Counted from the stretch's first letter, positions 11,247 to 52,110 are shown. The stretch: DNA of 52,832 bases from a virus (IMGVR_UViG_3300028797_000097), one strand, 5' to 3'. Translations and numbers: made by a program. Notes: a model not told the origin generated them from the sequence alone.

Positions 11247-11254
11247 TATAAATA
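11247..11254 (+). promoter_or_regulatory. T4-type late promoter
   Basis: TATAAATA(ATATAAA) upstream of leader-family gene 11323. Confidence 0.75.
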
Positions 11255-11322
11255 ATATAAATTACGGTTTCTTAGAGTTCCGAGAAACCAAAGAAAATAC
11301 AGAATTTAATAGAGGATTAGGT

Positions 11323-11871
11323 ATGAATCTTAATGAAGCAAAGCAATTTCTTAAAAGACATGGCTTTATCGTAGAAAGAAAGGGTGATTTTGTTGATCCG
11401 TCAACAAGACCTGAATTTTATGACCCGGATTACTATGCAGAAGATGGTTATGATGCTAGTGATGAAGAAAGCGATTGCTCAAATTATGCTACCGAGGTTG
11501 AAAAATATTTAAAAACAAATTATCCTGATAAAAAGGTCGAAGTTAATTATGATATTTCTGACGATGGAGAATATATTAAATATGAATGCGCTGTTGCTTT
11601 TATATTTGATCATCTTCCAACATTTGATGAAGTAACTGACTGTGAAGATATTTCTTATGACATTGCAAATGATGTAGATGATTGCGGATGTCCATGGGAT
11701 GATGGCGAAACTTTAATATATGCCGTTGTCAATGGAAAGAAACAAGATATAACTAATACTTATAAAAATCCAGAAGGCATAGAAAACGCTGAATATTTTG
11801 AAGTTGTTGAAATGTCTTATGGTACAAAACGAATTCCTGAACCAGAAGATCCTCGTGAACCTGAATGGTAA
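11323..11871 (+). CDS. leader-family late protein, acidic cargo (putative virion-internal)
   Basis: MNLNEAKQFLKRHGFIVE leader; GAGGA RBS; D/E-rich body. Confidence 0.75.
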   Translation: MNLNEAKQFLKRHGFIVERKGDFVDPSTRPEFYDPDYYAEDGYDASDEESDCSNYATEVEKYLKTNYPDKKVEVNYDISDDGEYIKYECAVAFIFDHLPTFDEVTDCEDISYDIANDVDDCGCPWDDGETLIYAVVNGKKQDITNTYKNPEGIENAEYFEVVEMSYGTKRIPEPEDPREPEW

Positions 11872-11889
11872 TTTATTAACATGAAAATA

Positions 11890-11919
11890 AAAAAGGATTG
11901 GATAAAACCAATCCTTTTT
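11890..11919. terminator. bidirectional intrinsic terminator
   Basis: aaaaaggattgg/ccaatccttttt between convergent genes. Confidence 0.85.
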
Positions 11920-11927
11920 AAATATTA

Positions 11928-12269
11928 TTAAAAACCATGTTTAAGTTTTTGAACATAATAGTTCAGTGGTTTGTCATCTTCATTTGCTGCATTAACACAT
12001 TTGTTATAACGAGTTTGATTGAAGTATTTTGATCTTTCCTTGAAAATCATTTCATGCATATCGTTCATCATTTTGTAACGGTGCATCATGAATTCATTAA
12101 CAAGTTTTTCTGATGTAACGATATAATAATTAAGTGACTTTTTTAAATTATTTTGGTCTACTGCTTTAATATAAGTAATGCATTCATCATAACGGCCAGA
12201 AGCAAGAAACTTGCTAATATCTGCCATAACTTTTAAATCAGGTGGGAAAAGTTTTAGAAAGAATTTCAT
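11928..12269 (-). CDS. hypothetical protein
   Basis: ATG 12269 (MKFF) with GGAG RBS. Confidence 0.7.
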   Translation of the reverse strand: MKFFLKLFPPDLKVMADISKFLASGRYDECITYIKAVDQNNLKKSLNYYIVTSEKLVNEFMMHRYKMMNDMHEMIFKERSKYFNQTRYNKCVNAANEDDKPLNYYVQKLKHGF

Positions 12270-12288
12270 TTTAATCTCCAAAAAATGG

Positions 12289-12507
12289 TTATTCCTTAAT
12301 ATTGATTTTGATTTGAGAACCTAATGTTCTGATCACAATATCTACGTTTTCTTTTGTAACAGGTTTATGTAATTTTCTTACTACATCTTCAGCCAGTGCA
12401 TAAATCTGCTTTTCTGTCGCGCCATCGGCAACAGCAAGCAGATCTTGCCATACATCTGCAAGGTCATTAAGACCTTCTGTATTATATCTGTCTAGAATAT
12501 TAGGCAT
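12289..12507 (-). CDS. hypothetical protein
   Basis: 72-aa ORF overlapping the pncA stop. Confidence 0.7.
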   Translation of the reverse strand: MPNILDRYNTEGLNDLADVWQDLLAVADGATEKQIYALAEDVVRKLHKPVTKENVDIVIRTLGSQIKINIKE

Positions 12508-13087
12508 TGATTACATCAATCTGTTGACGCTGGAGACAGAGAATTGCAGCCTTCTGACCTTCTTCATCCAAATCAGCAATGCAGCTTGCATCGACCGTAA
12601 TCTTCATATTCGGGAATGCAGCTCTGAGAATAACTGCGTTCGCAAGAACACAAATCGTGCTTACGAAACCCCAAATTTCAATTTCGTCGAATTCAATACC
12701 GAGATTTCTGATATATTCAGGAAGATCGAGCTTACCGAATGTATACTTATCGACAGAATAGAAATTGTGCTTACCATCTTGGTTCTTCTTCTGAAGTTCA
12801 TCAAGAATAGTCTTTTCAATTTCCCAACCATCGGTCAGCTTAATGCAGTGCGGAACTGGAAGCTTCTGACCTTCCAATGTTTCCTCATACGGCTTGCCTT
12901 CCATTGGAGGCCAACCAGTAGTAACCTGCATCTTGTTAAAGTGAGTATCATGCGTTGCAATGATAGCACCATCCCAGTGCTTAATCTTGTTAACAATATT
13001 AGGAACCTTCGCCTGTGCGAATGGATTTGCGAGTGCACCAGTAATAAAGTCTACCTGTGCATCAACTAATAAGCCGAGTTTTGCCAT
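12500..13087 (-). CDS. pncA: nicotinamidase (isochorismatase / cysteine hydrolase family)
   Basis: LLVDAQVDF (Asp), HDTH, PHC, DKYTFG (Lys), GFVSTICV (Cys nucleophile). Confidence 0.85.
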   Translation of the reverse strand: MAKLGLLVDAQVDFITGALANPFAQAKVPNIVNKIKHWDGAIIATHDTHFNKMQVTTGWPPMEGKPYEETLEGQKLPVPHCIKLTDGWEIEKTILDELQKKNQDGKHNFYSVDKYTFGKLDLPEYIRNLGIEFDEIEIWGFVSTICVLANAVILRAAFPNMKITVDASCIADLDEEGQKAAILCLQRQQIDVINA

Positions 13088-13113
13088 TGTTATATCCTCT
13101 CTTTTTATTTTTA

Positions 13114-13142
13114 AATTTAGTAAATTTTTTTGTGTTTGTAAA
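13114..13142 (-). promoter_or_regulatory. sigma70-like early promoter (pncA), variant -10
   Basis: TTTACA-N17-TAAATT. Confidence 0.6.
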
Positions 13143-13147
13143 TATGT

Positions 13148-14745: not shown

Positions 14746-14758
14746 TTGTTATTCTCCA

Positions 14759-15270: not shown

Positions 15271-15277
15271 ATTATAT

Positions 15278-16804: not shown

Positions 16805-16812
16805 TATAAATA
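16805..16812 (+). promoter_or_regulatory. T4-type late promoter
   Basis: TATAAATA(ATATAAA). Confidence 0.75.
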
Positions 16813-16842
16813 ATATAAAATGATAAAAAATTTGAGGATTTT

Positions 16843-17484
16843 ATGATAGATTTTTTAAACGAAGCATTAGATTTGGGTGATGTCGAGAATTACGACGATC
16901 GCAATAAGGCTAAGGGATCATCAACATTCCGTAGCTTTATTATGACCGAAAAGGCTGATGAAGCATATAATAATAGAATTACCAATAGAATTTGTGCAGA
17001 AATTCGTGATATTATGGGAGATATTTATATAGCAACTCCGACAGGTTCTCGTTCTGCAAATAAAATTCAGCTTATTCGTAGAGGTAAGGGTGGTGCTTAT
17101 CAGTTCGAATTAAGAATTAATAGTGATGGAACTATTAGTGTTACTGATAATAGCCAAGCAAAGGGCTTTATCAAGACACTTGATGACGGAACCAAGAAGT
17201 TTATCTTGTTAAATGCTCATGAATTCTATAGAACAAAGAAGACAAATGATGCTGGTGTTTCTGAACTTATCGAATGGTTAACTGATAATTATGATAAGTA
17301 TGAAGCATCAAATGGTGCTGCAAGAGACAGACGTGAAGGAATTACTCAAGCTGCTCGCACTTCTTCCGCTATGGGAACAAGAAGAACAGGTCCAAAACGT
17401 GTTACAGATATGATGAGACGTCACGGTATTAGCAGTGTTTCTGACTTTTTAAGAAACGGCGGCAATATTAGAGACCTTATCTAA
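16843..17484 (+). CDS. late protein with short leader variant (MIDFLNE), unknown cargo
   Basis: Late promoter, GAGGA RBS, N-terminal L-N-E, Arg-rich C-terminus. Confidence 0.7.
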   Translation: MIDFLNEALDLGDVENYDDRNKAKGSSTFRSFIMTEKADEAYNNRITNRICAEIRDIMGDIYIATPTGSRSANKIQLIRRGKGGAYQFELRINSDGTISVTDNSQAKGFIKTLDDGTKKFILLNAHEFYRTKKTNDAGVSELIEWLTDNYDKYEASNGAARDRREGITQAARTSSAMGTRRTGPKRVTDMMRRHGISSVSDFLRNGGNIRDLI

Positions 17485-17535: not shown

Positions 17536-17543
17536 TATAAATA
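17536..17543 (+). promoter_or_regulatory. T4-type late promoter
   Basis: TATAAATA(ATATAAA). Confidence 0.75.
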
Positions 17544-17571: not shown

Positions 17572-19329
17572 ATGACTTTTAACGAAGCAAAAAAGCTATT
17601 AAAATCAAAGAATATGTATTTTATCAAGGAAAATGCTGCATTTGGCTCTCTCGAAGAGTATAAGGCCAAATTGAGCGACTTGTGGGCAGATAACTATACA
17701 ACTGATGATCCAGATGAAGCATCTTTTGACGAAATTCTCGCCATGGATGAAGACGCTGAAGAATTGGTCAAGAGTTATTACGAACGTGAACTTGACCCGA
17801 CAGAAGCTGTTGAGGAATTACACGATACTTTAGCAAGTGTTCCGGAAAATACAGAAGATTTCGAAGAAGTTGTCGATGATGAAGGTGAAGATGCTGAATA
17901 TATCGATGATGAAGAAAATATTGATGCATTAGATGGCGATGATAACATCGCTTATGATGAATCTGATTTAGATAACTTCGAAGACGATGAAAATTATGTC
18001 GCAGATGATCTCGAACCGGAGGAAGAATTGAATTTTGGTGAAGCTGTCAGATATTTAAAGAAACATGGCTATGCACTTAATGAAGATGCACAGTTACTTT
18101 TGGAAGCATGGTATGATAATATCGGATTAGACGATACTGATAAGTTGTTTATCCAGAGAACCATGGAAACTTATGCTTCTGCTAAGTCTAAGCCAAGAAC
18201 ACTCGGTGGTCAACGTATTAAGGGTGGTTACATGACACCTGCAAAACGTGCTGATTACTATGGCAAGTTCGAACATATTTTGGAATTGATTGCAGATCGT
18301 CCGAATGCTACCAGAAATATGAGAACTGTTAGAAAGGAAATGGAACTTCTTCAGGATGATAACTGGTATCAGTTCATTCATGAAAAGAACCCAGACCTTG
18401 ACCAAGATACAATTGTTGAAATCTTCGGTCATGCAGCAATCGGTGAAACTGCTGACTTGACACCAGAAGAAGCTGAGCAGCGTCGTGCAGAACGTGCTGA
18501 AGCTGAACGTCGTGCAGCAGAAGCAGAACGTGAACGTCGTGAACGTGAAGCTGCAGCAGAACGCGAACGTCAACGTCGTGAAAACCCAGAACCAGAAGAC
18601 ATGATTACTCATCGTGAATTCGAAGAAACTCCGGAAACTGTTACTACCCGTCGTGTCACTCGTCACCGTATGAGAACAGTTAACCGTAATTATACTGACC
18701 ACTATGCATTCCCAGCTGCAACAATCAAGATTAATATCGATGTTACTGGCGACGATGAATCCAAGGCAGAAGTTGATGAAATTATTTCTGCAATCAAGGA
18801 TAAGTTACGTCTTGCTTACGAAGATGATGAAGGTAAGTATGCAATGTGTAATGTTGATGCAGCAGTTGTTGATGTCGAAGAAGATGGTGCTACAAAGCAA
18901 GAATATCATATCGTTATCAAGATGCCTGCAGAAATCAAGGAAGAAATTGCTCAGTTCGCTCAGGTCGAACTTGAAGATACATTCCCGTTCGTTAATTCTG
19001 AACATCCAGAAGATTCTGTTTATGAATTCGATAATACTGGAAACCGTGATGAAATCGAAGACGAAACTTACGAATATGATGAACCAGTTGTTCAGAGAGG
19101 TCGTAGACGTCCACAGACTACTGGAGCACGTCGTGTTAGCAGAACACCTCGTTGGAGAGTTCACTATACATTAGCTGATGAAAACGGTCGTGATAGTAGA
19201 ATTCAGAGAACTGTTATTGTTCCTGCAGCAACTGCTGAAGATGCTAAGAACAAGGTTGAAAACCCAGAAGACATCGATAATGCATACGCAACTGGTGTAT
19301 TCGCTGTAACAGGTGTTGATAGAGTCTAA
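17572..19329 (+). CDS. leader-family late protein with two leader copies, acidic and multi-domain
   Basis: ATG 17572 MTFNEAKKLLKSKNMYFIKE; internal LNFGEAVRYLKKHGYALNE; E/R-rich helix. Confidence 0.75.
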   Translation: MTFNEAKKLLKSKNMYFIKENAAFGSLEEYKAKLSDLWADNYTTDDPDEASFDEILAMDEDAEELVKSYYERELDPTEAVEELHDTLASVPENTEDFEEVVDDEGEDAEYIDDEENIDALDGDDNIAYDESDLDNFEDDENYVADDLEPEEELNFGEAVRYLKKHGYALNEDAQLLLEAWYDNIGLDDTDKLFIQRTMETYASAKSKPRTLGGQRIKGGYMTPAKRADYYGKFEHILELIADRPNATRNMRTVRKEMELLQDDNWYQFIHEKNPDLDQDTIVEIFGHAAIGETADLTPEEAEQRRAERAEAERRAAEAERERREREAAAERERQRRENPEPEDMITHREFEETPETVTTRRVTRHRMRTVNRNYTDHYAFPAATIKINIDVTGDDESKAEVDEIISAIKDKLRLAYEDDEGKYAMCNVDAAVVDVEEDGATKQEYHIVIKMPAEIKEEIAQFAQVELEDTFPFVNSEHPEDSVYEFDNTGNRDEIEDETYEYDEPVVQRGRRRPQTTGARRVSRTPRWRVHYTLADENGRDSRIQRTVIVPAATAEDAKNKVENPEDIDNAYATGVFAVTGVDRV

Positions 19330-19348
19330 TAATCTCAATTAATAAAAG

Positions 19349-19376
19349 AAAGGCGGCAAGTAATTGCCGTCTTTTT
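19349..19376. terminator. bidirectional intrinsic terminator
   Basis: aaaggcggcaa-gtaa-ttgccgtcttt. Confidence 0.85.
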
Positions 19377-19379: not shown

Positions 19380-20708
19380 TTAGAATGTCTTAATAAATGC
19401 GGTATAACCTAAGTAAGCGTTATAAATGTCATTTACATGGGCAAGTTCTAATGGAGAGTGCATATTCAGAATTGGAACACCTGCATCAAGAACATTGATA
19501 TTCAATTCACAAACCATACTTGCGATTGTTCCACCGCCACCAACATCGACCTTGCCAAGAGAATCAAACTGATACTTAACTCCTGCATCCTTCATAACCT
19601 TTCGGATATAAGCAATAAATTCAGGATTTGCGTCAGCACCACCAGACTTACCACGACCTCCATTATACTTAGAGAACATAATACCACCATTTAACTTAGC
19701 AGAAGATTTCTTATCATAAGCGTCTGCATAAAGTGGGTCATAAGCTGCAGTAACGTCAGAAGAAAGCATACGAGAACGTGCTAAGTATGTAGCAAATTCA
19801 ACTTCATCCTTCGGTCTCAAGACACAACGTAATACGTCTTCAAACCATCTCGATTTTGCTCCTGTAGCACAGCAAGAACCAATTTCTTCCTTATCTACTA
19901 ATACAACACCAGATGTGACTTCTGGAAGCTCCTGGAGCGACAGAACAGCCATTAATGAGGTAAATGCGCAAACTCTATCATCTTGACCATAACCAGCAAT
20001 CAAGGACTTATCAAAGCCAGAATATCTTGCTTTACCTGCAGGAACAATTTCAAGTTCTGCAGAAACTAAATCTTCTTCTTCAACTCCATATTTTTCCTTA
20101 AGGAACTGTAAAACCCATTCCTTAACCTTTTTCTTATCCTTATCTTCAGTTTCGATTTCAGTCGTTGCTACGAGAATATCGAGCTTTTCACCATTAATGA
20201 AATCACTTGCTTTCTTTTCTGCAAGTTTCTTATCAAGGTGAGGAAGAAGGTCACAAATACAGAAAATCGGATCATTCGGATCTTCACCAATAGAAACCTT
20301 TACAGTGTTACCGTCAATAGTGCAAATAACACCATGAATAGCAAGCGGAGTAGTTGTCCATTGATACTTCTTGATACCACCATAATATTGTGTATCAAAG
20401 TAAGCAATTCCATCTGATTCATAAAGTGGCTTTTGCTTGACGTCGATTCTAGGAGCATCAATATGAGCACCGAGAATGTTTACTGCTATGTTTGCCTTAC
20501 CAACAATAAATGCTGCAAAATTCTTATTTTTATTCTTGAAATAAACCTTTTCACCTGGCAACAAAATACCAGAAGTATGTTTATATTGCCTAAAACCAGC
20601 AAGAATAGCAAGACGTTCAGCTTCATCGACACAAAGACGTTCAGTCTTCGCGGTTGAAATAAAATTAATATAATCTGTGATTAAGTTTGTTTGATTTATT
20701 ATACTCAT
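19380..20708 (-). CDS. M18 family (aspartyl/ApeA-like) aminopeptidase
   Basis: GAHIDAPR, GQDDRVC, DKEEIGS, SSDV, MHSPLE; ATG 20708 preferred. Confidence 0.9.
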   Translation of the reverse strand: MSIINQTNLITDYINFISTAKTERLCVDEAERLAILAGFRQYKHTSGILLPGEKVYFKNKNKNFAAFIVGKANIAVNILGAHIDAPRIDVKQKPLYESDGIAYFDTQYYGGIKKYQWTTTPLAIHGVICTIDGNTVKVSIGEDPNDPIFCICDLLPHLDKKLAEKKASDFINGEKLDILVATTEIETEDKDKKKVKEWVLQFLKEKYGVEEEDLVSAELEIVPAGKARYSGFDKSLIAGYGQDDRVCAFTSLMAVLSLQELPEVTSGVVLVDKEEIGSCCATGAKSRWFEDVLRCVLRPKDEVEFATYLARSRMLSSDVTAAYDPLYADAYDKKSSAKLNGGIMFSKYNGGRGKSGGADANPEFIAYIRKVMKDAGVKYQFDSLGKVDVGGGGTIASMVCELNINVLDAGVPILNMHSPLELAHVNDIYNAYLGYTAFIKTF

Positions 20709-20716: not shown

Positions 20717-20744
20717 AATATAAAAAAATAACGGGTTTTGTAAA
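20717..20744 (-). promoter_or_regulatory. sigma70-like early promoter fused to terminator hairpin
   Basis: TTTACA-N16-TATATT; stem aataacgggttt/aaacccgttatt. Confidence 0.75.
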
Positions 20745-20771
20745 CCCGTTATTGTTAATTGCTGAAATTTA

Positions 20772-22301: not shown

Positions 22302-23405
22302 TTACTGTTTTAAAGCATCTTCGATAATCATGCCATGGTGGAAACCAAGTTTTGGCAAATTATCAAGCTTAAACCAGCCTACATCTGCAGCATCATCGCC
22401 AGCAACTGCCTTTTTCTTGTCCTTACCAGGAACATGTACAACAAATGCTGTATCAATAATGCGAAGTCTCGGATCAAACATATGGCTATATGTCTTAATC
22501 TGAGTAAACTTTTCAACTGGAATGTCAAGTCCGGCTTCTTCCCTAAATTCTCTCTGTGCTGCATGTTCAAGACTTGCATCTGGTTTTTCCATTTCACCAG
22601 TTTCTTTATTCTTGAATGCAGAATGATTAAAGAATCCACCAGGAGTGCACCAATGACCCATGAAAGGAGGTTTCTTTCTACGAATCAACATAACTTCGTC
22701 GCCGGAAATTGCACAAACGTCAACTGTGTTTGCAAATGCTCCCCAGCCCTGTTTCTTATAGTTTTCAACCCATTTCTTTTCCAAATCCGCATAATTTGTC
22801 GGATTCTGATTATAAAGACATGTAGAAACAATATTATTCTTTGCATCAATTTCGCCTTCATGACGAATAAAATTGAATACAACCTTACTAATATACTTCT
22901 GAACATCCTTATAGTGACATTCTGGATTAACTCTAAAGATTTCTCTAACAGCACTGCTAGAAATACCTTCAGTCTTGAGATTGTCAACAATAGTGCAATT
23001 TGCTTGCTTATAAGCAACAGCTGCGTCTCTTGCGAAGACGAGGAACTTATAAGTATTCAGTAAACGGTTACTATATAACCACTTACCAGCAACGAGACTC
23101 TTCCATTCATCATCGCCAATAACGATAGTAATTTCATTCGGGTCAACTTGACGATAATTAACCCAAAGATATTCATACATTCTGTTAGTTTGAATATCAA
23201 TATCGTAATCAACATTCTTAGATGCTAATGCGACTTTGACCATCTGCTTACGTGCACCTGCGGGTGTGCGATTGGTCTTTTCGTCATTATCTGTAACAAG
23301 AATGTGAAGTTTATCGCCAGCTCTCATTCTTTTCTTGACAGCTTTGATAATTGCTTCATGTGCATGTGTGAATGGGTCAAACCAGCTTCCGAATATATAA
23401 TGCAT
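22302..23405 (-). CDS. bifunctional NadD-like nucleotide adenylyltransferase / Nudix ADP-ribose pyrophosphatase
   Basis: GSWFDPFTHAH (HxxH), ISSSAVR; Nudix WCTPGGF...AAQREFREEAGL, DPRLRII, AGDDAADVGWF. Confidence 0.85.
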   Translation of the reverse strand: MHYIFGSWFDPFTHAHEAIIKAVKKRMRAGDKLHILVTDNDEKTNRTPAGARKQMVKVALASKNVDYDIDIQTNRMYEYLWVNYRQVDPNEITIVIGDDEWKSLVAGKWLYSNRLLNTYKFLVFARDAAVAYKQANCTIVDNLKTEGISSSAVREIFRVNPECHYKDVQKYISKVVFNFIRHEGEIDAKNNIVSTCLYNQNPTNYADLEKKWVENYKKQGWGAFANTVDVCAISGDEVMLIRRKKPPFMGHWCTPGGFFNHSAFKNKETGEMEKPDASLEHAAQREFREEAGLDIPVEKFTQIKTYSHMFDPRLRIIDTAFVVHVPGKDKKKAVAGDDAADVGWFKLDNLPKLGFHHGMIIEDALKQ

Positions 23406-23425: not shown

Positions 23426-23454
23426 AATATAGCAAAACAATTGTTAGTTGTCAG
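23426..23454 (-). promoter_or_regulatory. sigma70-like early promoter (nadD-Nudix)
   Basis: CTGACA-N17-TATATT; -35 lies inside the 3' end of the upstream gene. Confidence 0.7.
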
Positions 23455-24523
23455 CCCTAACAATCGTCTCGCCATCAAAGTCAGCGAAATGTTCCTTCAT
23501 GTTGTTAATTGTTTCCATTGGAACATTATGGATAGAACCGAAATCATTTGCCATACGGTAAACTGAAACGTTATATCCATGTGCTGCTGCTTCGTTCAAA
23601 TAAGGCTTTAATTCCTTATGCTTTACGAAGGTATTAGAAACAATTACAAAAGAATCTTCACCCTTTAATGCATTGAATACATCATTGAAGCACTTGTTAT
23701 GTGCAACACCTAACAATGCAGGATTGAACTTATATTCTCCAGCTTCATTAATCCAGAAATTATCAGATTCGAAATGGCTAGCCTTATGTCCTTGGGACTG
23801 CAAGCTAGCAAGTAACTTCTTTGCAAAAGTAGACTTGCCGGAACCTGGAATACCACGAACAATGACCAATGTCTTACCATCGTCTTTTGGTTGTAACTCA
23901 TGGATTCTTACTGGTCTGTAATAAGATTCCCAGTTAACGTTATTTTGCACTAATTCTACTCCTTTATGATTGCACTTTGTTGTCTGTGCGAATTCATGTG
24001 TATGACCATGAACAAGATACGTAATGAATGTTCCTTCAGAATCATAATAATTTAATGCAGAATTATCAGAATCCTTATAACCCTTATCATCTATATCATT
24101 ATAGGTATAATGCTGCAAAAGATAATTTACACCATTATGAGTTAACAAGATATGGTTATCACGAACCAAAGTAACCTTTGGAAATCCCTCGATTACCTTC
24201 GATAACTTCTTGAAGATTTCATAGTCATGATTTCCCAATAACCAGTACATATGCTTGAAATGCAACTTGCTGTAATACTCTCTAAACAAGTCTACTAACT
24301 TGCTACCTGGAGTTCCAAGGGTGAAATCACCAAGGAAGAAAACAGTAGTCTCGTCGTCAACAACATCATTCCATTGCTTCTCAATATCTGCGTTCATTTC
24401 ATCAATTGTTGCATACTTTCTTGTTCTATCGAAATGGTCTTCGTAGCTAGTACATAACTTACGATGGTTTAAATGTAAATCGCTTGTAAAGACAATCTTA
24501 TTGTCATCTATTGTTATTTTCAT
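23444..24523 (-). CDS. calcineurin-like metallophosphoesterase fused to P-loop (AAA_33 / polynucleotide kinase-like) kinase
   Basis: SDLH, LGDF, GNHD, HGHTH, then RGIPGSGKST and IVSNT. Confidence 0.88.
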   Translation of the reverse strand: MKITIDDNKIVFTSDLHLNHRKLCTSYEDHFDRTRKYATIDEMNADIEKQWNDVVDDETTVFFLGDFTLGTPGSKLVDLFREYYSKLHFKHMYWLLGNHDYEIFKKLSKVIEGFPKVTLVRDNHILLTHNGVNYLLQHYTYNDIDDKGYKDSDNSALNYYDSEGTFITYLVHGHTHEFAQTTKCNHKGVELVQNNVNWESYYRPVRIHELQPKDDGKTLVIVRGIPGSGKSTFAKKLLASLQSQGHKASHFESDNFWINEAGEYKFNPALLGVAHNKCFNDVFNALKGEDSFVIVSNTFVKHKELKPYLNEAAAHGYNVSVYRMANDFGSIHNVPMETINNMKEHFADFDGETIVRADN

Positions 24524-24612: not shown

Positions 24613-26553
24613 TTACTTTGTTGCTGTAGAGAACAAATCGATTAAAGTGTCCTTGCTTAACTGAGTTAAATCAAGTGCAACTTCAGTCTTTTCGTCACCA
24701 TCTTCAACGAAAGTGAAACCTGCCTTTTCAAGAATAGGCTTCAAGTCCACGAAGGAACGGCACTTATTCTTGAGATTTTCGATGTATACCTGAGCATACT
24801 TCTGGTTAGGAACACGACCACCGCCTTGAGTAAGGTCCATAAGATAAACCTTATTATCGATGATCAATGCACACTGCTTATCACGTTCACCATCAACTGG
24901 AATAATGAATTCTGCCTTGATGTTGTTCGGATCACACATCGGACATTCACGACCATTATATGAACTATAGCCACGGTCCTTCATGTTAGAACGATTTTCA
25001 CGTGCTACGAAGAACTTAAATTGAGACTTCGGAGATCCAGAGAATTGAGAAACAGATACCTTACCATCTGGGCATGCCTTGCTAATATAGAACAATTCAG
25101 TAGCTTCCGGTTCGGCATTTGTCATGTCACCAGAGAAGATAACCTTGTTGTTCTTATCATTATAAGCAGCATTCCAACCATAAGAATTACCGTTAATATC
25201 AGCCAAATGGAGGTCGAAATCTCGAGTTCCCCATTCGTTACGCCAATAAATACCGATAACGTTATGGTCATCACCCATATCAACAGAAGTACCGAACGGA
25301 TAGTTTCCAATAAAGTTCTTTTCAGAAGTCGGAACGGTTAAGTTCACATTCTTCGGATAACGAACAGTGCATGCCTTGTCCTTGATTGAGTTAACAATAG
25401 AATCTTCGAGCATGCCATAAACCCTCATAAGATAAGTGTTCATGTTCTGAGAAACCTTAGGTGCGTCTTCACGAACCCACATCTTACCATTTCTGATTAC
25501 ATACATCTTTCCAGATGCATTCTGAAGCTTAGCAAGAATAGCTTGCATAAGTGTAATCTTCTTAAAGTTGGTGATGCTATCCTTTGCAAGACGATCAGCA
25601 ACTTCAGTCAATGGCTTTTCTTCTGTGATAATAGTTTCCCAGAATCCCGGCTTAAACGGCTTATGAACAGAAACTGCCAAACGTCTGATATGGTTAATAA
25701 CAGACGCATTAGTTGCCTTACCAGCTACTGCAGCCTTAAGCTTTGAAGCAGCCTTGCGGAATGCTTCGTTCTGGAAAACCTTTGCAGATTCAACACCTGC
25801 TGTATGCTTGAAAGCAAGGAACAATGGCTTAAATCTGTAGAAAATAGAAGCCAAAATGTTACATTCAGTTTCAGAAAGATGAGTAAAATCAACCTTGCTA
25901 GCATTTTCCTTAATAGTCTGAATAGTACGACGGTCCTTGATGAGCATTGCCTTACCAGTTGCCTTGAAGACAAAGTATCTAAGCATGTTAAACGGATCTG
26001 CACCATAGATATTGGTAGCATCCATCAACATAATGACCGATTCCTTGTTCTTAATTGTGTCAATATTAAGACCGTACTTGAGGTAACGTTCTTCCTTGAC
26101 AATATAATCAATAAGAATTTCAAGAGTTTCAGATTCAAGTGCGATACCTGACTGAAGCATCTTAATACAACGGTTATAGATTTCCTCATCAGTTGCAGGC
26201 ATGATAACCTTAAATGACTGATACGGAATTTCTACATCGGGAGATTGGTTAGGGACATAACCATTTCCGGCAGTAAAGCCAATACCGTATGTGGTTGCAT
26301 AATGAACAAGCTGATCAGCCAAAAGTTCGATACGAGTCTTGGATGTAATGTCTTCCCACTTCTTGTAGAAGGTCTTATTGTAATTGGTTTTTGCTTCAGC
26401 CTTGACCCAAGCCAAAGTAGTCTTGGAGCAACAATCAGGGTGAATAATCCAACCATACTTAGCAGATTCTGCGTTAACTTCTAAGAATGAAAGCTTATCT
26501 TCAGATGCCGTAGGCGCGACATTAAACATTGTAATCAACTTGAGATTAATCAT
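24613..26553 (-). CDS. 646-aa conserved-phage-type protein with TerD-like C-terminal region
   Basis: RDFDLH, GWNAAY, IFSGDMTNA resemble TerD-type stress domains; N-terminal part unrecognised. Confidence 0.5.
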   Translation of the reverse strand: MINLKLITMFNVAPTASEDKLSFLEVNAESAKYGWIIHPDCCSKTTLAWVKAEAKTNYNKTFYKKWEDITSKTRIELLADQLVHYATTYGIGFTAGNGYVPNQSPDVEIPYQSFKVIMPATDEEIYNRCIKMLQSGIALESETLEILIDYIVKEERYLKYGLNIDTIKNKESVIMLMDATNIYGADPFNMLRYFVFKATGKAMLIKDRRTIQTIKENASKVDFTHLSETECNILASIFYRFKPLFLAFKHTAGVESAKVFQNEAFRKAASKLKAAVAGKATNASVINHIRRLAVSVHKPFKPGFWETIITEEKPLTEVADRLAKDSITNFKKITLMQAILAKLQNASGKMYVIRNGKMWVREDAPKVSQNMNTYLMRVYGMLEDSIVNSIKDKACTVRYPKNVNLTVPTSEKNFIGNYPFGTSVDMGDDHNVIGIYWRNEWGTRDFDLHLADINGNSYGWNAAYNDKNNKVIFSGDMTNAEPEATELFYISKACPDGKVSVSQFSGSPKSQFKFFVARENRSNMKDRGYSSYNGRECPMCDPNNIKAEFIIPVDGERDKQCALIIDNKVYLMDLTQGGGRVPNQKYAQVYIENLKNKCRSFVDLKPILEKAGFTFVEDGDEKTEVALDLTQLSKDTLIDLFSTATK

Positions 26554-26690: not shown

Positions 26691-27806
26691 CTATTTAGAA
26701 ATTATTTCAATTTCATAGAAATACTTTTGCATGATACCAACCAGTTTTTCATACCAGATTTTACCATCATTAATCCATTCTTCGAGATTTGGCATTTCCA
26801 TGTTAATTAAGTCACCAACATTCTTCCATCTCAGACATTTCTTCATTCTGAACATGGTCTTAAGCTGGTTAATAATAATTTCATATCTTTCCTTGGTAAG
26901 ATACTTTGTGATATTTCCACACATATCTTTAAACAAGTCTTCAAGTTCTTTTTGGTGTTCCTTATCAGTACAAGCATTCATGTATAAAATACCATTTTTG
27001 GTAATGAGATGAATGTCACCGATAACATAATAGCTCAGTCCACGCTTCTCTCTGATTTCCTGGCAGAATGGAGAATTCAAACCTTCACATAACATCTGCA
27101 TGCCAACTAAGGCAGGGAGATATTCGGTCTTAATAACGGGATGCTTACTAAAAACAAATACATTAACTTTTTCAGAATCTGTAACCGGGAGAATTTCTTG
27201 TTTCCTATCTCTAAACTTAAGAGCTACAGGTTCAGGTAAGGTGTCTAAATATTCAATATTGCTAAAGTCTGTTTTATCCTTGCCAACTTCAACAATTCTA
27301 AGGGGTTTCGTATATTGTTCTTTTGCGACCTGAAGCATGTCTGCATAAGTAAAAGCTTCAATATCTGCTGGAATACCAGTCGGGTCGTGAACATCGAAAT
27401 AGTTATAAATTAAGTTTGTGTAATGACCATCATTTGGGTCTTCATAAGAATCGAGAAGTTCTTGCATAACGATTTTCTTTTCATTTTCAAAATCCTTCTC
27501 TGTAATATTTACATAATCGTTTAAAAGTGCTCTGACAAGTTCTTTTTTAAAGTCGGATGGTAATTTATCTTCGAGTCCTCTAAAATAAACTACAACATAA
27601 TTTTGTGAAGTGGATGCATTAAAATCAATACAATCATTTGTGAATCTGTCCATATATTTATCAACACTCTTCGTGATCAAATGTTCCATCAAGTGTGATA
27701 TTCCCCTACGACCTGGTTTTTCATATGCACAACCTGTAGGAAATACAATATTTAACGATGTTAATCCTAGTTTATTCTTCTTAAATACATGTCCTGCTTT
27801 TATCAT
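26691..27806 (-). CDS. M16 (insulinase/pitrilysin) family zinc peptidase
   Basis: GISHLMEH (HxxEH), FNASTS, EIREKRGLSY. Confidence 0.9.
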   Translation of the reverse strand: MIKAGHVFKKNKLGLTSLNIVFPTGCAYEKPGRRGISHLMEHLITKSVDKYMDRFTNDCIDFNASTSQNYVVVYFRGLEDKLPSDFKKELVRALLNDYVNITEKDFENEKKIVMQELLDSYEDPNDGHYTNLIYNYFDVHDPTGIPADIEAFTYADMLQVAKEQYTKPLRIVEVGKDKTDFSNIEYLDTLPEPVALKFRDRKQEILPVTDSEKVNVFVFSKHPVIKTEYLPALVGMQMLCEGLNSPFCQEIREKRGLSYYVIGDIHLITKNGILYMNACTDKEHQKELEDLFKDMCGNITKYLTKERYEIIINQLKTMFRMKKCLRWKNVGDLINMEMPNLEEWINDGKIWYEKLVGIMQKYFYEIEIISK

Positions 27807-29417: not shown

Positions 29418-30164
29418 TTATTTTTTAAATAATTTTAAGAAAATATCAAGTAATGTTTCAAAAAGACCCTTTTCTACTGGTTTTTCTTGAATTTTTTCTG
29501 ATTTTTCTTCTTTAATTTCAGGTTTCGATTCTTCTCTAACTTCTGGAACTTTTACTTCGACAATTTCTTCTTTAACTTCTTTTGCTTCTTCTATTACTAT
29601 TTCTTCTATAGGAGAAACTCTAATAATAAAATCTTGCCACTTAGAAATATCATTTGTATCTTCATTCCAACCAATAATGCCAGGGCACAACTTCCCATTA
29701 ATATCATAATGTCTGATAACATGGTCTGGTTTAATATTGTATTCTTCCATTAATTTCTTTGTAAGTTCTACGCAGTTATTTATTACCGCATCTGTAAAAT
29801 ACCAGTTTTCATCATTTGGCGATGTAACTTTCTTTGCAGAATTTGTAGAACACATCTCGATACCGATAGAATTAGCACTTGTGCATACTTTATATAGCGA
29901 ACCGCCTTTGGTCTTATATTTAGAACCGCCACAATGCCAGCAGTATCTGTTCTTTATATCAGGGTTATACTGGACTATGTTTTCGTCGTCAATAATGAAG
30001 TCTGCAGAGGCTTTTGTAGTTTCCTTAGCAAAATACTTAGCATTTGATTTCGCAGTCCCTGGCTTGCTTGTAACGCCCGCAGTATAGTGTATAACGATAT
30101 ATTTAATCTTTCGATTTTTTGATTCTGTTGTATTGGCTGTATTAGTGCATTCTATGATATTCAT
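29418..30164 (-). CDS. N-acetylmuramoyl-L-alanine amidase (Amidase_2), probable endolysin
   Basis: IVIHYTA, SADFIID, WHCGG, SIGIEMC, VIRHYD, KLCPG; E/K-rich linker and amphipathic C-terminal helix. Confidence 0.9.
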   Translation of the reverse strand: MNIIECTNTANTTESKNRKIKYIVIHYTAGVTSKPGTAKSNAKYFAKETTKASADFIIDDENIVQYNPDIKNRYCWHCGGSKYKTKGGSLYKVCTSANSIGIEMCSTNSAKKVTSPNDENWYFTDAVINNCVELTKKLMEEYNIKPDHVIRHYDINGKLCPGIIGWNEDTNDISKWQDFIIRVSPIEEIVIEEAKEVKEEIVEVKVPEVREESKPEIKEEKSEKIQEKPVEKGLFETLLDIFLKLFKK

Positions 30165-30168
30165 ACAT

Positions 30169-30176
30169 TATTTATA
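30169..30176 (-). promoter_or_regulatory. T4-type late promoter (amidase)
   Basis: TATAAATA ending 5 nt before the ATG; a second copy overlaps on + (30173-30180). Confidence 0.65.
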
Positions 30177-30180: not shown

Positions 30181-30210
30181 GAAAAACCGGAACTAAATTC
30201 CGGTTTTCTT
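30181..30210 (-). terminator. intrinsic terminator
   Basis: gaaaaaccggaa/ttccggttttc. Confidence 0.8.
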
Positions 30211-30227: not shown

Positions 30228-31166
30228 TTATGCTCTTAATTCAGATGCGTTTCGCTTTGTACATGCCAAACCAATCATCTTTTTAACAGTTTCTTCACCG
30301 TAATGGTCAACATATGCACGAACATGACTTGTAATTGCTGGATATTTACCATACCAAACTGGAATTTCAGTAAATGTAACAGTATCACCAAGTTTCATAT
30401 TTGCAATTTCATCAATATGTTTACCGCCAACGCATAAATCAAATAAACGTCCTAATGCACTTTTAGCACGATCATTTGCAGTACCATCTATAAATTTTTT
30501 AAGGCAAGCATCAAGCATGGATTCATCTTTACATGCATATGTAAGAGTTACATTACCTGCAGTATAGCCATCACCTAGACGTTTTTTTGGCGCAGGTGTT
30601 TGTTTATTTTGACTTTGAATATCGTCAAGTTCCTGGTCCATAGCATCCATATAAGCATCTTCGCGAATGAGCTTAGAACACTTATTTTGGAGTAACTTTT
30701 TAGCTTCTGTTAGCTTTGCCTTTGCAGCATTAATTGCACGAGAACCAAGTGCTTTATATAATCCGTCAAAATTCAAACCATTAAAATCGGCATTTAAGTC
30801 AAATGGCTGACCTGGATTATTTTTCTTATATGCTAAAAATTCACTAGTTGCTGCGATAAACATAGCTTTTAATTCTGTAATATCATTAGGATCTTCGTCT
30901 CCAGTTAACCAACCGCAATCATCGATTGCAATTCTAATTATACCAGGTAAAAATCTGTCTTGACCTTTTTCTCTCCAAAAGAGATGAGAAAATGTAGCAC
31001 GTGCTTGTTGAATAAGCTCTTCAACAGAAGAACAGCCAGTACGAGTTAATGCATCTGAAGATTTTATCCATTGTATTGCTTTTCTAATGCCATCAGAGTT
31101 AGCATCTTCTTTAAGAAGTGTATATCCCTTATTTTTAAGTAAGCCTTTAGCTTCTTGTAAATTCAT
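30228..31166 (-). CDS. leader-family late protein with internal second leader
   Basis: MNLQEAKGLLKNKGYTLLKE; internal KLTEAKKLLQNKCSKLIRE. Confidence 0.75.
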   Translation of the reverse strand: MNLQEAKGLLKNKGYTLLKEDANSDGIRKAIQWIKSSDALTRTGCSSVEELIQQARATFSHLFWREKGQDRFLPGIIRIAIDDCGWLTGDEDPNDITELKAMFIAATSEFLAYKKNNPGQPFDLNADFNGLNFDGLYKALGSRAINAAKAKLTEAKKLLQNKCSKLIREDAYMDAMDQELDDIQSQNKQTPAPKKRLGDGYTAGNVTLTYACKDESMLDACLKKFIDGTANDRAKSALGRLFDLCVGGKHIDEIANMKLGDTVTFTEIPVWYGKYPAITSHVRAYVDHYGEETVKKMIGLACTKRNASELRA

Positions 31167-31189: not shown

Positions 31190-31197
31190 TATTTATA
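31190..31197 (-). promoter_or_regulatory. T4-type late promoter
   Basis: TATAAATA(ATATAAA). Confidence 0.75.
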
Positions 31198-31200
31198 AGA

Positions 31201-31229
31201 AAAAACCGAACACTTATGTCCGGTTTTTT
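31201..31229 (-). terminator. intrinsic terminator (imperfect) abutting late promoter
   Basis: aaaaaccg...ccggtttttt. Confidence 0.6.
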
Positions 31230-31259
31230 GAATGCATTCACAAGTTCTAAGCTAAAGGA

Positions 31260-31342: not shown

Positions 31343-31350
31343 TATTTATA
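31343..31350 (-). promoter_or_regulatory. T4-type late promoter overlapping the upstream stop codon
   Basis: TATAAATA includes the TAA of 31346..32629. Confidence 0.65.
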
Positions 31351-32651: not shown

Positions 32652-32659
32652 TATTTATA
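32652..32659 (-). promoter_or_regulatory. T4-type late promoter
   Basis: TATAAATA(ATATAAA). Confidence 0.75.
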
Positions 32660-32661
32660 AC

Positions 32662-32692
32662 AAAAAAGGTAGTCAAATTAATGACTACCTTT
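32662..32692 (-). terminator. intrinsic terminator abutting late promoter
   Basis: aaaggtagtca/tgactaccttt plus U-tract. Confidence 0.8.
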
Positions 32693-38348: not shown

Positions 38349-38377
38349 AATATAATAAAAACAGGGTTTTTTGTAAA
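38349..38377 (-). promoter_or_regulatory. sigma70-like early promoter with short hairpin
   Basis: TTTACA-N17-TATATT; agggttt/aaaccct. Confidence 0.75.
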
Positions 38378-38387
38378 CCCTATTAAA

Positions 38388-42158: not shown

Positions 42159-42166
42159 TATAAATA
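42159..42166 (+). promoter_or_regulatory. T4-type late promoter
   Basis: TATAAATA(ATAAAA). Confidence 0.75.
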
Positions 42167-42183: not shown

Positions 42184-42516
42184 ATGACTATAAATGAAGC
42201 AAAAGAATTTCTTAAAAAGAATGGATATAAAATATTAAAAGAAGATGTGAACTCAGATGAAGCACCGGCATGGGAAGAAGGTTGGAAAGAATTATCTTTT
42301 AATGAAAAAAAGGCAGCACGCTGGCTTATGCAGAATTTTAATAAAGATCATAGAATTAATGAAGAAGATTTAGAAAAGTCTTTAGATGTAATAATTATTG
42401 AAGCAATTTTAGACCATAAAGATGAATGGCTTGAATTTATGTCTGATGAAAATATTGTAGATATGGTTTATGAATATTTAAATTCATTATCAGTAGATGG
42501 TCTTAATAACTTATAA
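42184..42516 (+). CDS. leader-family late protein, acidic cargo
   Basis: ATG 42184 MTINEAKEFLKKNGYKILKE. Confidence 0.75.
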   Translation: MTINEAKEFLKKNGYKILKEDVNSDEAPAWEEGWKELSFNEKKAARWLMQNFNKDHRINEEDLEKSLDVIIIEAILDHKDEWLEFMSDENIVDMVYEYLNSLSVDGLNNL

Positions 42517-42535: not shown

Positions 42536-42976
42536 ATGAAACTTCAAGAAGCATTAAAGTTATTAAATAATTCTGGTTATATTTGTGAATCTACAGTTGT
42601 TGCAGCACCGACATTTGAAGAATATAAAAATGAAGTCTATCAGTTGCTTTCAAATCGTCTCGGTCAAGAACGTGCTGATATGATTATAGATTATGAAGAA
42701 AGAGAACTTCAGGATTATGCTTATAGGCAAGGTTGGTCAGTTAAGCAAGGTGCCGAAGCAGTCATTGAATGGACAACACCAAGTGAAAAACAGAAAGAAA
42801 TTTTAGATTTCATGTATAGTAACTGGGATGCTGATAATGAACGTTCTTACGGTCCAGATTCTGAATATGACGCAGTATGTGAACGTGCACGAGAACAATT
42901 CGAAGATTCAGAATCGCTTATTCCTAGCGATACTTATGAATTTGCGGTCCTTTATGGTAAAGAGATTAATGAATAA
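42536..42976 (+). CDS. leader-family late protein, acidic cargo
   Basis: MKLQEALKLLNNSGYICE; GAGGA RBS. Confidence 0.75.
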   Translation: MKLQEALKLLNNSGYICESTVVAAPTFEEYKNEVYQLLSNRLGQERADMIIDYEERELQDYAYRQGWSVKQGAEAVIEWTTPSEKQKEILDFMYSNWDADNERSYGPDSEYDAVCERAREQFEDSESLIPSDTYEFAVLYGKEINE

Positions 42977-42980: not shown

Positions 42981-43005
42981 AAGAGAGTTTAAAAACTCTC
43001 TTTTT
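42981..43005. terminator. bidirectional intrinsic terminator
   Basis: aagagagttt/aaactctctt with A/T tracts. Confidence 0.8.
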
Positions 43006-43695: not shown

Positions 43696-43724
43696 AATAT
43701 AGAAAAAGGATTGACTTTCGTCAA
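43696..43724 (-). promoter_or_regulatory. sigma70-like early promoter fused to terminator hairpin
   Basis: TTGACG-N17-TATATT; ttgac-tttc-gtcaa core identical to 479-492. Confidence 0.8.
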
Positions 43725-43748
43725 CCCTTTTTTGAACATACATGGTAA

Positions 43749-49085: not shown

Positions 49086-49088
49086 ATT

Positions 49089-50214: not shown

Positions 50215-50215
50215 T

Positions 50216-50383: not shown

Positions 50384-50410
50384 TTTTACTCCTTTTCTTT
50401 GTCTATAAGT

Positions 50411-50683
50411 TTATTTTCTGATATTTCCACTTTTAGGATGAACTTCTATATCCATATAATGAACTGGATAATTTACTGTTTTTTCTGAAGATTCTGTATT
50501 AAATGGAATTTCTTCTTCAATAGTCTTTACATGATATAATTTAACATTGATTGCAGAAACTATATCTTCATCAGTATTAATGAAATCAATAGCTTCATCT
50601 TTACTTTTAAAAGATTTTTGATAAGTATATGATGAAACTTTATATTGCCATGTAACTTTATATGATTCCGAAATTAAATTCAT
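50411..50683 (-). CDS. hypothetical protein
   Basis: 90 aa; likely leaderless first gene. Confidence 0.7.
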   Translation of the reverse strand: MNLISESYKVTWQYKVSSYTYQKSFKSKDEAIDFINTDEDIVSAINVKLYHVKTIEEEIPFNTESSEKTVNYPVHYMDIEVHPKSGNIRK

Positions 50684-50690
50684 ATTTTAA

Positions 50691-50719
50691 AATATAGAAA
50701 AAGAGCTGACTTTCGTCAA
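50691..50719 (-). promoter_or_regulatory. sigma70-like early promoter fused to terminator hairpin
   Basis: TTGACG-N17-TATATT; tgac-tttc-gtca core. Confidence 0.8.
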
Positions 50720-50747
50720 CCCTTTTATAATTTTGATAATTTAAAAA

Positions 50748-51155
50748 TTAATATATTTCTATTCTATGTTTGTTAATAATAATACGTCTATGTTCAAATT
50801 TATCTTTCCATTCTTCACCATAAACGCCGGTTTTAAATTTTTCCTCAACTTTCTTAATTGCATAGTTCTCAACTTCTTTATAGTCGTCAAGATAACAATC
50901 AGAAAGATTAAGTTTAATCCTATAACCTTTATTGTTAGTAATATCTATATAAGGAACTACAGCCAACTTATATTTGGATTTTTTATCCAATTCATCATAA
51001 CATCTTTCGCAGTATCTTTTGCCTCTATATGTTAAATATGCTTCATCTGACCATAGTTCATCACCACATCTTGCGCAATAACCTTGTACATGGCTTTCAT
51101 TAATGACTTTATAACCATTTTCTGAAAGTAATTGTTTTGCTTCATCTAAATTCAT
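50748..51155 (-). CDS. leader-family late protein with zinc-finger cargo
   Basis: MNLDEAKQLLSENGYKVINE; CARC...CERC; GGAGG RBS. Confidence 0.75.
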   Translation of the reverse strand: MNLDEAKQLLSENGYKVINESHVQGYCARCGDELWSDEAYLTYRGKRYCERCYDELDKKSKYKLAVVPYIDITNNKGYRIKLNLSDCYLDDYKEVENYAIKKVEEKFKTGVYGEEWKDKFEHRRIIINKHRIEIY

Positions 51156-51172
51156 TTTTAACCTCCTATGCT

Positions 51173-51502
51173 TTAGTCTTCATACCATTCATCGCAGGTA
51201 AGGTCAGCGAGCAAGTTCTGTACACAAGTATCAGTTTCACACGAGTTAAACTTGACACCATCTTCATATGCATCTTTTGCCGCACGATCATCATTATAGT
51301 CTTCTCCAGCATATCCTATGATAAATGCTCGCTTAAAGTTATTATAATCGGCATCATCACCCCAGTATTTATACGAGCGGTCCCAGAGTTCGTCAAAAAT
51401 CTCTTCAGGGGTATATGATAATCTTTCATTCAGTTGTTTGGTTTCCTTGATAAGCCTGTACCCTTGTTTCTGGAGTAATTGTTTTGCTTCTGTTAAATTC
51501 AT
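51173..51502 (-). CDS. leader-family late protein, acidic cargo
   Basis: ATG 51502 MNLTEAKQLLQKQGYRLIKE. Confidence 0.75.
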   Translation of the reverse strand: MNLTEAKQLLQKQGYRLIKETKQLNERLSYTPEEIFDELWDRSYKYWGDDADYNNFKRAFIIGYAGEDYNDDRAAKDAYEDGVKFNSCETDTCVQNLLADLTCDEWYED

Positions 51503-51527
51503 TTTCAATCTCCTTGTTATTTTTTAT

Positions 51528-51535
51528 TATTTATA
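51528..51535 (-). promoter_or_regulatory. T4-type late promoter
   Basis: TATAAATA(ATAAAA). Confidence 0.75.
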
Positions 51536-51546
51536 GAAATTTTGTA

Positions 51547-51554
51547 TATAAATA
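51547..51554 (+). promoter_or_regulatory. T4-type late promoter, divergent from 51528
   Basis: TATAAATA. Confidence 0.7.
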
Positions 51555-51582
51555 AAGAAACGTTTAAGAAAAGGTGAAAAAT

Positions 51583-52110
51583 ATGAATTTAAATGAATGG
51601 ACATTGAATCAAGCAGCAGGTTTATTGGATGAAGGTTTTAAACCGTTCGGTTCTACTGAAGACTATAGTGCTGAAGAACTTCGTAAAATAGCAAAACAGA
51701 GAGAAATGTTACATGAAGAAACAGATTCTGATTCTTCTTTAGATCAAATCTTTGAAACTCTTACTAAGACTCGTGATATTTGGTTAAAAGAATTACAAGA
51801 AACATTGCCCGAAGGCTATCATGCTACTGCCTATACCGGTTCTTGTGCTACAGGATTATCTAAGAGAATTCCCGGAATTAATATTACACATGATGTTGAA
51901 AGAGAACCGGGTAAATATATATTGGTAAATAATGAGAATCCTAGAAAAATTGAATTTGAAGGCGTCGGACCATGCACTTTGAATGGGTGGGAAAAAAATA
52001 TAGCAATTCACTATCCAGGTGTCAGACGTATGGCTACACGATTCAGACTTCCAGGAATGTATAACTATAAACATGAAGTTGCAAAAATAGTTAAGGATAT
52101 AACTGGGTAA
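51583..52110 (+). CDS. late protein with short leader variant (MNLNE)
   Basis: ATG 51583, AAGGT RBS, several L-x-E sites in the first 50 aa. Confidence 0.7.
   Translation: MNLNEWTLNQAAGLLDEGFKPFGSTEDYSAEELRKIAKQREMLHEETDSDSSLDQIFETLTKTRDIWLKELQETLPEGYHATAYTGSCATGLSKRIPGINITHDVEREPGKYILVNNENPRKIEFEGVGPCTLNGWEKNIAIHYPGVRRMATRFRLPGMYNYKHEVAKIVKDITG

Follow-up and report, generated by a model that had tools for sequence, protein, structure and literature searches.

Why do genes with unrelated products, dispersed over the DNA of one giant phage, begin with the same short peptide? This question is raised by IMGVR_UViG_3300028797_000097, a viral stretch of 52,832 nucleotides (52.8 kb, hereafter the window) with 34% GC and about 93% coding sequence, the minus strand of which holds the majority of the genes. 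Seven of its open reading frames (ORFs), named here by the position of their start and marked (-) when on the minus strand, share an N-terminus: 11323, 17572, 31166(-), 42184, 42536, 51155(-) and 51502(-). They carry at Met1 the pattern M-N-L-x-E-A-K-x-L-L-x-x-x-G-Y-x(0-2)-Φ-x-E (Φ, hydrophobic); we call it the tag, and the protein that follows it the cargo. An earlier note on this DNA had quoted these seven N-termini, all of them correctly, and had proposed that they belong to a T4-type system for targeting proteins to the phage head. The six-frame pattern scan of the window found the motif solely at Met1 of the seven ORFs, and the profile made from the seven tags scored each of them at 37-46 bits. 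When residues 1-26 were cut, the remaining bodies fell into seven different BLASTP clusters, in agreement with the claim that they are unrelated, and the similarity indeed stops at a Glu preceded by hydrophobic residues, every tag ending in hydrophobic-x-Glu. With slightly better than even confidence, this analysis leads us to regard the tag as a lineage-specific version of the T4 capsid-targeting sequence (CTS), that is, as a cleavable leader.

Relatives of the window were found via its 646-amino-acid (aa) marker protein, which led to four IMG/VR contigs, including G001 and G002, both analysed entire. G002 (70.6 kb) shows 80-99% DNA identity to the window and is syntenic with its first 36 kb (1-36 kb). 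G001 is a complete genome (424,163 bp, terminal repeats present) in which the marker protein shares 62% identity with that of the window. The window DNA is present in bovine gut metagenomes from several studies, and its source is an uncultured giant T4-related phage of cattle gut. Among GenBank phages, neither a near-identity nor a protein relative of the window was found, nor one of the 312-aa cargo of 31166(-). Searched against 5.8 billion proteins, the tag profile gave 83 matches, all metagenomic and none with a Pfam domain, on contigs of up to 679 kb. The 108 tag-bearing proteins from the window, G001, G002 and a large protein database were distributed over 21 BLASTP cargo clusters.

All seven tagged genes are the first or second gene behind the motif TATAAATA, as the earlier note had stated. 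The window contains 16 copies of this motif (8.8 ± 2.9 expected), ten of them 5-69 nt upstream of a gene start, and five of these ten drive the seven tagged genes. Its usual extended form is TATAAATAATATAAA; it lies 18-69 nt upstream of 11323, 17572, 31166, 32629, 42184 and 51502, and in many cases it immediately follows a terminator hairpin. The genes 42536 and 51155, which have no promoter of their own, come second in such operons. In G001, TATAAATA is found within 60 nt upstream of 83 of the 716 genes, including the portal, protease, tail and terminase genes; since it precedes these structural genes, it is probably the late promoter of the lineage, as had been proposed. About 13 genes of G001 have the tag at Met1, and 10 of 13 have TATAAATA within 60 nt compared with 73 of the 703 other genes (p = 5.6e-8); two more tagged genes are second in their operons. 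The co-occurrence of the leader with TATAAATA and with a gp21-like protease, named as a check in the earlier note, was found when the profile was run against this genome. A gp55-like ORF of G001 gave a weak match to phrog_234 (28 bits, E 5e-7), and the direct search of G001 with T4 gp55 gave no match. The motif TATAAATA-N4-ATG, without a Shine-Dalgarno sequence, was also observed at exactly -12 of 20 G001 genes (including tail and structural genes) and of the window endolysin gene (30164-30176), a placement that suggests leaderless late mRNAs.

The early-type motif TT[TG]AC[AG]-N16-18-TATA[TA]T has 17 sites in the window, all on the minus strand, of which 16 precede genes. None of these 16 genes is tagged, which bears out the statement that the leader does not occur behind sigma70-type promoters. 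This specific recurrent motif was used because sites from a generic sigma70 scan of the window were not above those of shuffled sequences (91 vs 78 ± 10; 112 vs 106 ± 11). The confinement of the tag to late genes, together with the A-rich first codons of the tagged genes, would also be expected if the conserved N-terminus were an expression element that tunes the translation or stability of late proteins. Yet the tag is missing from the majority of late genes, among them every structural gene examined, the conservation extends over 20 residues with a defined helix/turn/strand pattern, and the motif is also found inside and at the ends of proteins (see below); we give this explanation the least credence of all.

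We then turn to the head genes, for which the evidence comes from G001. This genome encodes a gp21-type (MEROPS S77) prohead protease (PF03420 101.7 bits, phrog_207 186 bits) with conserved GELSHP and GVSSRG blocks, a scaffold protein (PF25623 T4_CASP, 29.5 bits), a gp20 portal, a gp15-like protein, tail tube proteins, a terminase and a gp23-type capsid protein. In the capsid protein, the segment '...GSELLTE/D' (the slash marks a cut site, known or putative) lies exactly 36 residues before 'VRR', and 'GSFLTE/A', a known gp21 cut site in T4 (PMC9026906), has the same spacing; this register is an ungapped one (36 residues to VRR in both), MAFFT having left the two sites unaligned. As the capsid-protein site is in register with that of T4, the protease specificity, (L/I)-x-Glu, is probably conserved. 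All of the distinct tags (76/76) carry [LIVMF]-x-E, ending at residue 18, 20, 22, 24 or 25, compared with 23.6% of control proteins, and its persistence at these shifted end positions means that the Glu site survives indels in the tag. Of the features of a T4-type targeting system, the S77 protease, the T4_CASP scaffold, the gp23-type capsid protein, the link with TATAAATA and the hydrophobic-x-Glu ending were recovered; a likeness to the T4 tag sequence was not.

The N-terminus of the G001 protease itself, MEAKKLLNE...KVINE/D, looks tag-like and parallels the LIE-9 site of T4 gp21 (PMC9026906), a likeness that is within chance by profile score (7.6 bits, E 0.44). Beside the protease gene, at 187700-188050 (-) of G001, a small Cys-rich acidic ORF carries the motif after an 11-residue N-terminal extension (MSMINTILVAEQ-AKLEEAKRIVEENGMTFIRE/S), and its position suggests a gp67/gp68-like core protein. 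Elsewhere in the same genome (217968-218552, +), the N-terminus of a small late protein, '...LILDE/DFSMGVGGPCGLDQGIPHGG', copies the capsid segment past the maturation site, '...LLTE/DFTQGVGAPLGLDQGIPHGG'.

The motif is not confined to N-termini. Among its 35 copies in the window, G001 and G002, 25 are at Met1, 7 are internal and 3 are C-terminal; the description as an N-terminal leader holds for most copies and has to be widened for those inside the 17572 and 31166 genes. Given these internal and C-terminal copies, the motif is a position-tolerant helix-Gly-strand module and not only an N-terminal signal. The 312-aa product of 31166(-) consists of two units, the first formed by the tag and cargo A and the second by an internal motif (aa 151-171, nt 30654-30716, LIRE/D) and cargo B, and its G002 orthologue is unit 1 alone (155 aa). 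Two or three copies are present in some proteins (database proteins P0001 and P0017, and the family of the 585-aa product of 17572). In database protein P0009 another tagged unit is fused in frame ahead of the 51155 zinc-ribbon unit, and in P0078 a 320-aa insertion separates the tag from a kept 'LLVE/S' junction. As read from these arrangements, the internal copies mark in-frame fusions of tag-plus-cargo units. At 98795-99838 (+) of G001, a 167-aa ORF ends with a full copy of the tag (MSLDEAFTVLNENGYITEAR); between it and a separate 178-aa gene lie an in-frame stop and one further codon, an arrangement that is possibly a split or stop-interrupted unit of this kind.

The 585-aa protein, which is conserved across the lineage, shows an acidic disordered linker (aa 91-153) after the tag, the second, internal motif and Arg-rich ferredoxin-like C-terminal domains. 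In the 24 homologues of this family the internal copy has invariant E, A, L and E residues, even though a divergent subgroup of them is only about 30% identical to the window protein. Its gene is preceded by that of a 213-aa protein, a conserved partner in all relatives. A contig of 1,765 nt from an RNA library spans exactly 17589-19353, that is, the 585-aa gene up to the terminator, although contigs cannot prove transcript ends. An Atlas look-up of the 585-aa protein gave nothing, and the fold search with its model returned generic ferredoxin-like/CutA matches, all with E >0.001, which were rejected.

Two AlphaFold2 (AF2) models of low to moderate confidence predict a helix at residues 3-12 of the tag and place the tag outside the cargo fold in both cases; the helix leads into a short strand (residues 17-19) in one model and into an unpaired segment in the other. 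PASTA/HicA-like domains were considered because of the helix-Gly-strand pattern, but no Pfam match of any kind covered the tag in a window protein, and a PASTA match over an internal copy in one G001 head-module protein was sub-threshold (20.3 bits, cut-off 23.2). These data also bear on the main rival reading, which takes the motif for a docking or oligomerisation module of a general kind that pairs with other copies or with a hub outside the head (tail, baseplate, decoration site or a late cytoplasmic complex, for example), the hydrophobic-x-Glu being a structural strand end that is left uncut. In its favour, the motif is present at N-terminal, internal and C-terminal positions, and the C-terminal copies and the proteins with several copies fit this reading better; in the AF2 model of the 585-aa protein the two copies are assigned as strand by DSSP, and a strand needs a pairing partner, which may be the other copy; and in shape the motif is reminiscent of how PASTA-like domains begin, with a helix and a strand, to which the weak match above can be added. 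Pure docking does not demand the Met1 bias (25/35) or a Glu site that is 100% conserved and shifts with indels; adhesins and fibres are unlike these small, acidic, fast-evolving cargos, none of which matched a tail or baseplate family above threshold. We consider this reading somewhat unlikely, while giving it real weight.

Divergent versions of the leader had also been listed in the earlier note, at four positions. The one at 32629(-) is genuine, a diverged copy into which four residues are inserted, and 22013(-) is without a tag; 16843 has a faint 'LNEAL' likeness below profile detection. The fourth, 51583, has a leader of a second class, MNLNE[WR]....AA.LL.E, which is found on late genes adjoining tagged cassettes and has only the first five residues in common with the main tag. 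The G001 orthologue and paralogue of the 175-aa gene 51583 are likewise behind TATAAATA.

Terminator-like hairpins bound the tagged cassettes, as had been described, and every tagged cassette is closed by one (Table 1). Cassettes differ between strains. The 11323 cassette is missing from G002, where 21 bp separate the same neighbour genes that are 748 bp apart in the window. The 31166 cassette is bracketed by direct repeats, each made of a AAAACCGG-loop-CCGGTTTT hairpin and TATAAATAAT (30182-30208 and ~31200-31240). One cattle-gut RNA library yielded a contig in which 30204 is followed directly by 31224, so that the related strain from which it comes lacks the whole cassette, and other contigs carry a different cargo at this site; RNA-library contigs show presence only, with no time resolution. 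Shuffling mediated by the promoter-early stem-loop (PeSL) is documented in T4-type phages (PMC2839356, PMC4122927), and the loss of the 31166 cassette is, judging from its flanks, a late-promoter analogue of it. The gain and loss of cassettes between 'terminator + late promoter' repeats, and the internal and C-terminal copies of the motif, are newly found here. Many early-type -35/-10 pairs lie in or beside terminator hairpins of the window as well (for instance 20717-20753, 38349-38384, 43696-43732 and 50691-50726), which is PeSL-like.

Such turnover could in itself account for a shared start, if the promoter moves as one recombination module with the ribosome site and the first 60 nt, and the peptide is a functionless by-product. 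The repeated flanks, the precise absence of the 31166 cassette in one strain and the indel at the 11323 cassette relative to G002 are what this explanation would expect. Nucleotide identity of the tags is, however, just 65% and 32% of the identical residues have different codons, so the tag is conserved as a peptide and not as a DNA repeat; moreover, 42536 and 51155 are tagged in second position, and the internal copies keep their key residues in homologues only about 30% identical. On these three grounds mobility explains the spread of the tag and not its conservation, and as a complete account we hold it to be very improbable.

As to the cargos, most are acidic (pI, isoelectric point, 4.1-4.4), and Pfam and PHROG scans of 20 tagged proteins found no family above threshold, tail and baseplate families included. 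The 42184 and 51502 products have orthologues in G001 with 49% and 52% identity, respectively. Acidic, Zn-finger and zincin payloads had been announced in the earlier note: the acidic cargos and a zinc ribbon are there, and the matches of the 427-aa HExxH protein to zincin (SprT-like)/LPD23 families are weak and sub-threshold. A role of the cargos in anti-defence or host takeover is a speculation.

The structure models suggest that the tag forms an amphipathic helix (residues 3-12), a Gly/Asn turn and a short exposed strand ending in hydrophobic-x-Glu. If it is a leader of the CTS type, tagged genes would be transcribed from gp55-type late promoters, and the tag would then dock the proteins on one shared partner (scaffold, protease or capsid interior) while the prohead core assembles. 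Next, cleavage by the gp21-type protease after the terminal Glu, and perhaps after the invariant Glu5-Ala6 as well, would free the cargo inside the head for delivery with the DNA. The functional unit would be the tag with a cargo of about 100-150 aa, in single genes, two-gene operons or in-frame fusions; in the fusions each unit keeps its own tag and putative cut site, the internal copies would serve as release sites, and recombination of the repeated 'terminator + late promoter' modules would swap units between strains. The sequences show the motif and its placement, the link to the promoter, the T4-type head genes and protease of a relative, the invariant site, the fused units and the cassette polymorphism; docking, packaging, cleavage and injection alike we infer by analogy with T4.

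Several observations weigh against this reading. The tag profile had no match to T4 IPII and IPIII, even at E 1000. Glu5 might merely form the N-cap box of a helix, and the hydrophobic-x-Glu ending the end of a strand, so that both would have a structural role only. The cargos are mostly acidic, in contrast to the internal proteins of T4, which have been described as basic (PMC9026906). Two of the three C-terminal copies have no following Glu site and a few copies stand behind short N-terminal extensions; given these C-terminal and extended copies, cleavage cannot be the sole role. The G001 portal is at most 24-27% identical to those of cultured phages, so that no close cultured relative exists, and, the window being without any head gene, the protease was identified in a relative with a marker of 62% identity.

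A more specific proposal, which we put forward tentatively and regard as possible rather than probable, would join several of these elements. The tag would be a plug-in module for docking that works regardless of its position and is flanked by two candidate protease sites, one behind Glu5 and the other behind the terminal Glu. With the flanking repeats it would permit a plug-and-play loading of the prohead core by any unit of roughly 100-150 aa that gains the tag, as single proteins or cleavable polyproteins, possibly through strand pairing with tag copies on hubs such as the 585-aa protein; the packaged set would then be readable from sequence and would turn over by cassette exchange.

Table 1 Features of the tagged cassettes and of related late genes. 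Positions are those of the window unless G001 is named; the slash marks the putative cut site.
Feature	Position	Strand	Remarks
Late promoter TATAAATA (extended TATAAATAATATAAA)	11247-11254	+	69 nt upstream of 11323 gene
Tagged gene, 182 aa, acidic (pI 4.1)	11323-11871	+	Tag aa 1-18, ends IVE/R
Bidirectional terminator-like hairpin closing 11323 cassette	11890-11919	.	Hairpin scan
Late promoter (16805-16812) and basic 213-aa late gene	16805-17484	+	No true tag
Late promoter directly after terminator hairpin	17536-17543	+	Serves 17572 gene
Tagged gene, 585 aa, conserved across lineage	17572-19329	+	Tag aa 1-20, FIKE/N
Internal motif copy in 585-aa gene	18031-18093	+	aa 154-174, ends LNE/D
Terminator-like hairpin closing 16843/17572 cassette	19352-19368	+	
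646-aa marker protein	24613-26553	-	Kept in all relatives
Terminator hairpin AAAACCGG...CCGGTTTT, then TATAAATA	30182-30208	-	Downstream repeat copy flanking 31166 cassette
Tagged gene, 312 aa, two units	30228-31166	-	Tag aa 1-20, LLKE/D
Late promoter (31190-31197) after similar terminator hairpin	31190-31240	-	Upstream repeat copy of 31166 cassette
Late protein, 427 aa, diverged tag	31346-32629	-	MKLNE-LEIY-KALKVLTESGYIISE/N; HELTH at aa 303
Late promoter (32652-32659) directly after terminator hairpin (32665-32692)	32652-32692	-	
Late promoter of two-gene cassette 42184/42536	42159-42166	+	
Tagged gene, 110 aa, acidic	42184-42516	+	Tag ends ILKE/D
Tagged gene, 146 aa, acidic, second in operon	42536-42976	+	Short tag form, ICE/S
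Bidirectional terminator-like hairpin closing 42184 cassette	42981-43002	.	
Terminator hairpin closing 51502 cassette	50699-50726	-	Also early-type -35/-10 (PeSL-like composite)
Tagged gene, 135 aa, CxxC-x18-CxxC zinc ribbon, second in operon	50748-51155	-	Tag ends VINE/S
Tagged gene, 109 aa, acidic	51173-51502	-	Tag ends LIKE/T
Late promoter of 51502/51155 cassette	51528-51535	-	
Divergent late promoter (51547-51554) and 175-aa gene	51547-52110	+	Second leader class, MNLNEW....AAGLLDEGF
Second leader class, window	51583-52110	+	Sequence comparison
Second leader class, G001	79671-80189	-	Sequence comparison
Second leader class, G001	81344-82213	-	Sequence comparison

The recognisable genes of the window have auxiliary functions typical of phages, including a radical-SAM enzyme and an amidase endolysin. 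Auxiliary enzymes lie among the early genes at 9897-11180, 19380-20708, 22302-23405, 23444-24523 and 26691-27806; they are a NAMPT, an M18 aminopeptidase, a cytidylyltransferase (nicotinamide mononucleotide adenylyltransferase-like)/Nudix enzyme, a phosphoesterase with a kinase, and an M16-like peptidase. Neither Pfam nor PHROG gave a family match for the marker protein. Its gene had by far the top contig depth in two cattle-gut RNA libraries (381 and ~34, with neighbours at ~2-36) and is probably very highly expressed.

If the tag loads the head, one could predict from sequence which proteins a whole clade of uncultured rumen giant phages (350-680 kb) packages and probably injects, and the turnover of cassettes from strain to strain would reveal where host-phage conflict is strongest among the genes. 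For bringing foreign proteins into T4-type capsids, the tag would add a second addressing peptide of different structure. The fusions of units and the internal and C-terminal copies give testable hints on how such tags are recognised.

Among known systems, the T4 CTS is the closest parallel. In T4, the CTS of the internal proteins IPI, IPII and IPIII and the propeptides of Alt, gp24, gp22 and gp21 are removed by gp21 (Mullaney & Black 1996; PMC9026906, PMC3012670). These propeptides measure 10-20 aa (PMC9026906, PMC5694885), and two sites are possible, as in IPII with IAE/A and KLE/A (PMC5694885). The tag resembles them as a short N-terminal leader on unrelated, fast-evolving and probably late proteins that ends in (L/I)-x-Glu, with a length of 18-25 aa (within or just over the T4 range), in a genome with a gp21-type protease, a gp22-type scaffold and a gp23-type capsid protein, and possibly with two sites as in IPII. 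It differs in having no similarity to MKTYQEFIAE, twice the minimal T4 tag length and a helix-Gly-strand pattern. About 13-15 tagged genes per genome stand in dispersed single cassettes, compared with the few IP loci of T4; copies also occur inside proteins and at C-termini, and the cargos are mostly acidic.

In phiKZ-like giant phages, the propeptides of ejection or inner-body proteins are processed (SPN3US gp245, phiKZ gp175; PMC5694885, PMC10052503). As is proposed here, a homologous protease cleaves many of their head-internal proteins behind a Glu; their propeptides can contain additional sites, and paralogues have identical N-termini. Those phages, in contrast, use (A/S/G)-x-Glu, their propeptides are often >100 aa, and they have no T4-type scaffold or gp55 promoters, whereas the head genes here are T4-like. 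The cassette flanks recall PeSLs, composites of terminator and promoter motifs that flank variable genes and act as recombination points (PMC2839356, PMC4122927), of which the window has 17 of early type; unlike these, the repeats around the tagged cassettes join the terminator with the late TATAAATA promoter and not with an early sigma70-type one. Finally, the cargo-loading peptides of encapsulins differ in sequence and involve no protease step, but they offer an analogy, and an analogy only, as short N- or C-terminal peptides that send unrelated cargo into an HK97-fold shell.

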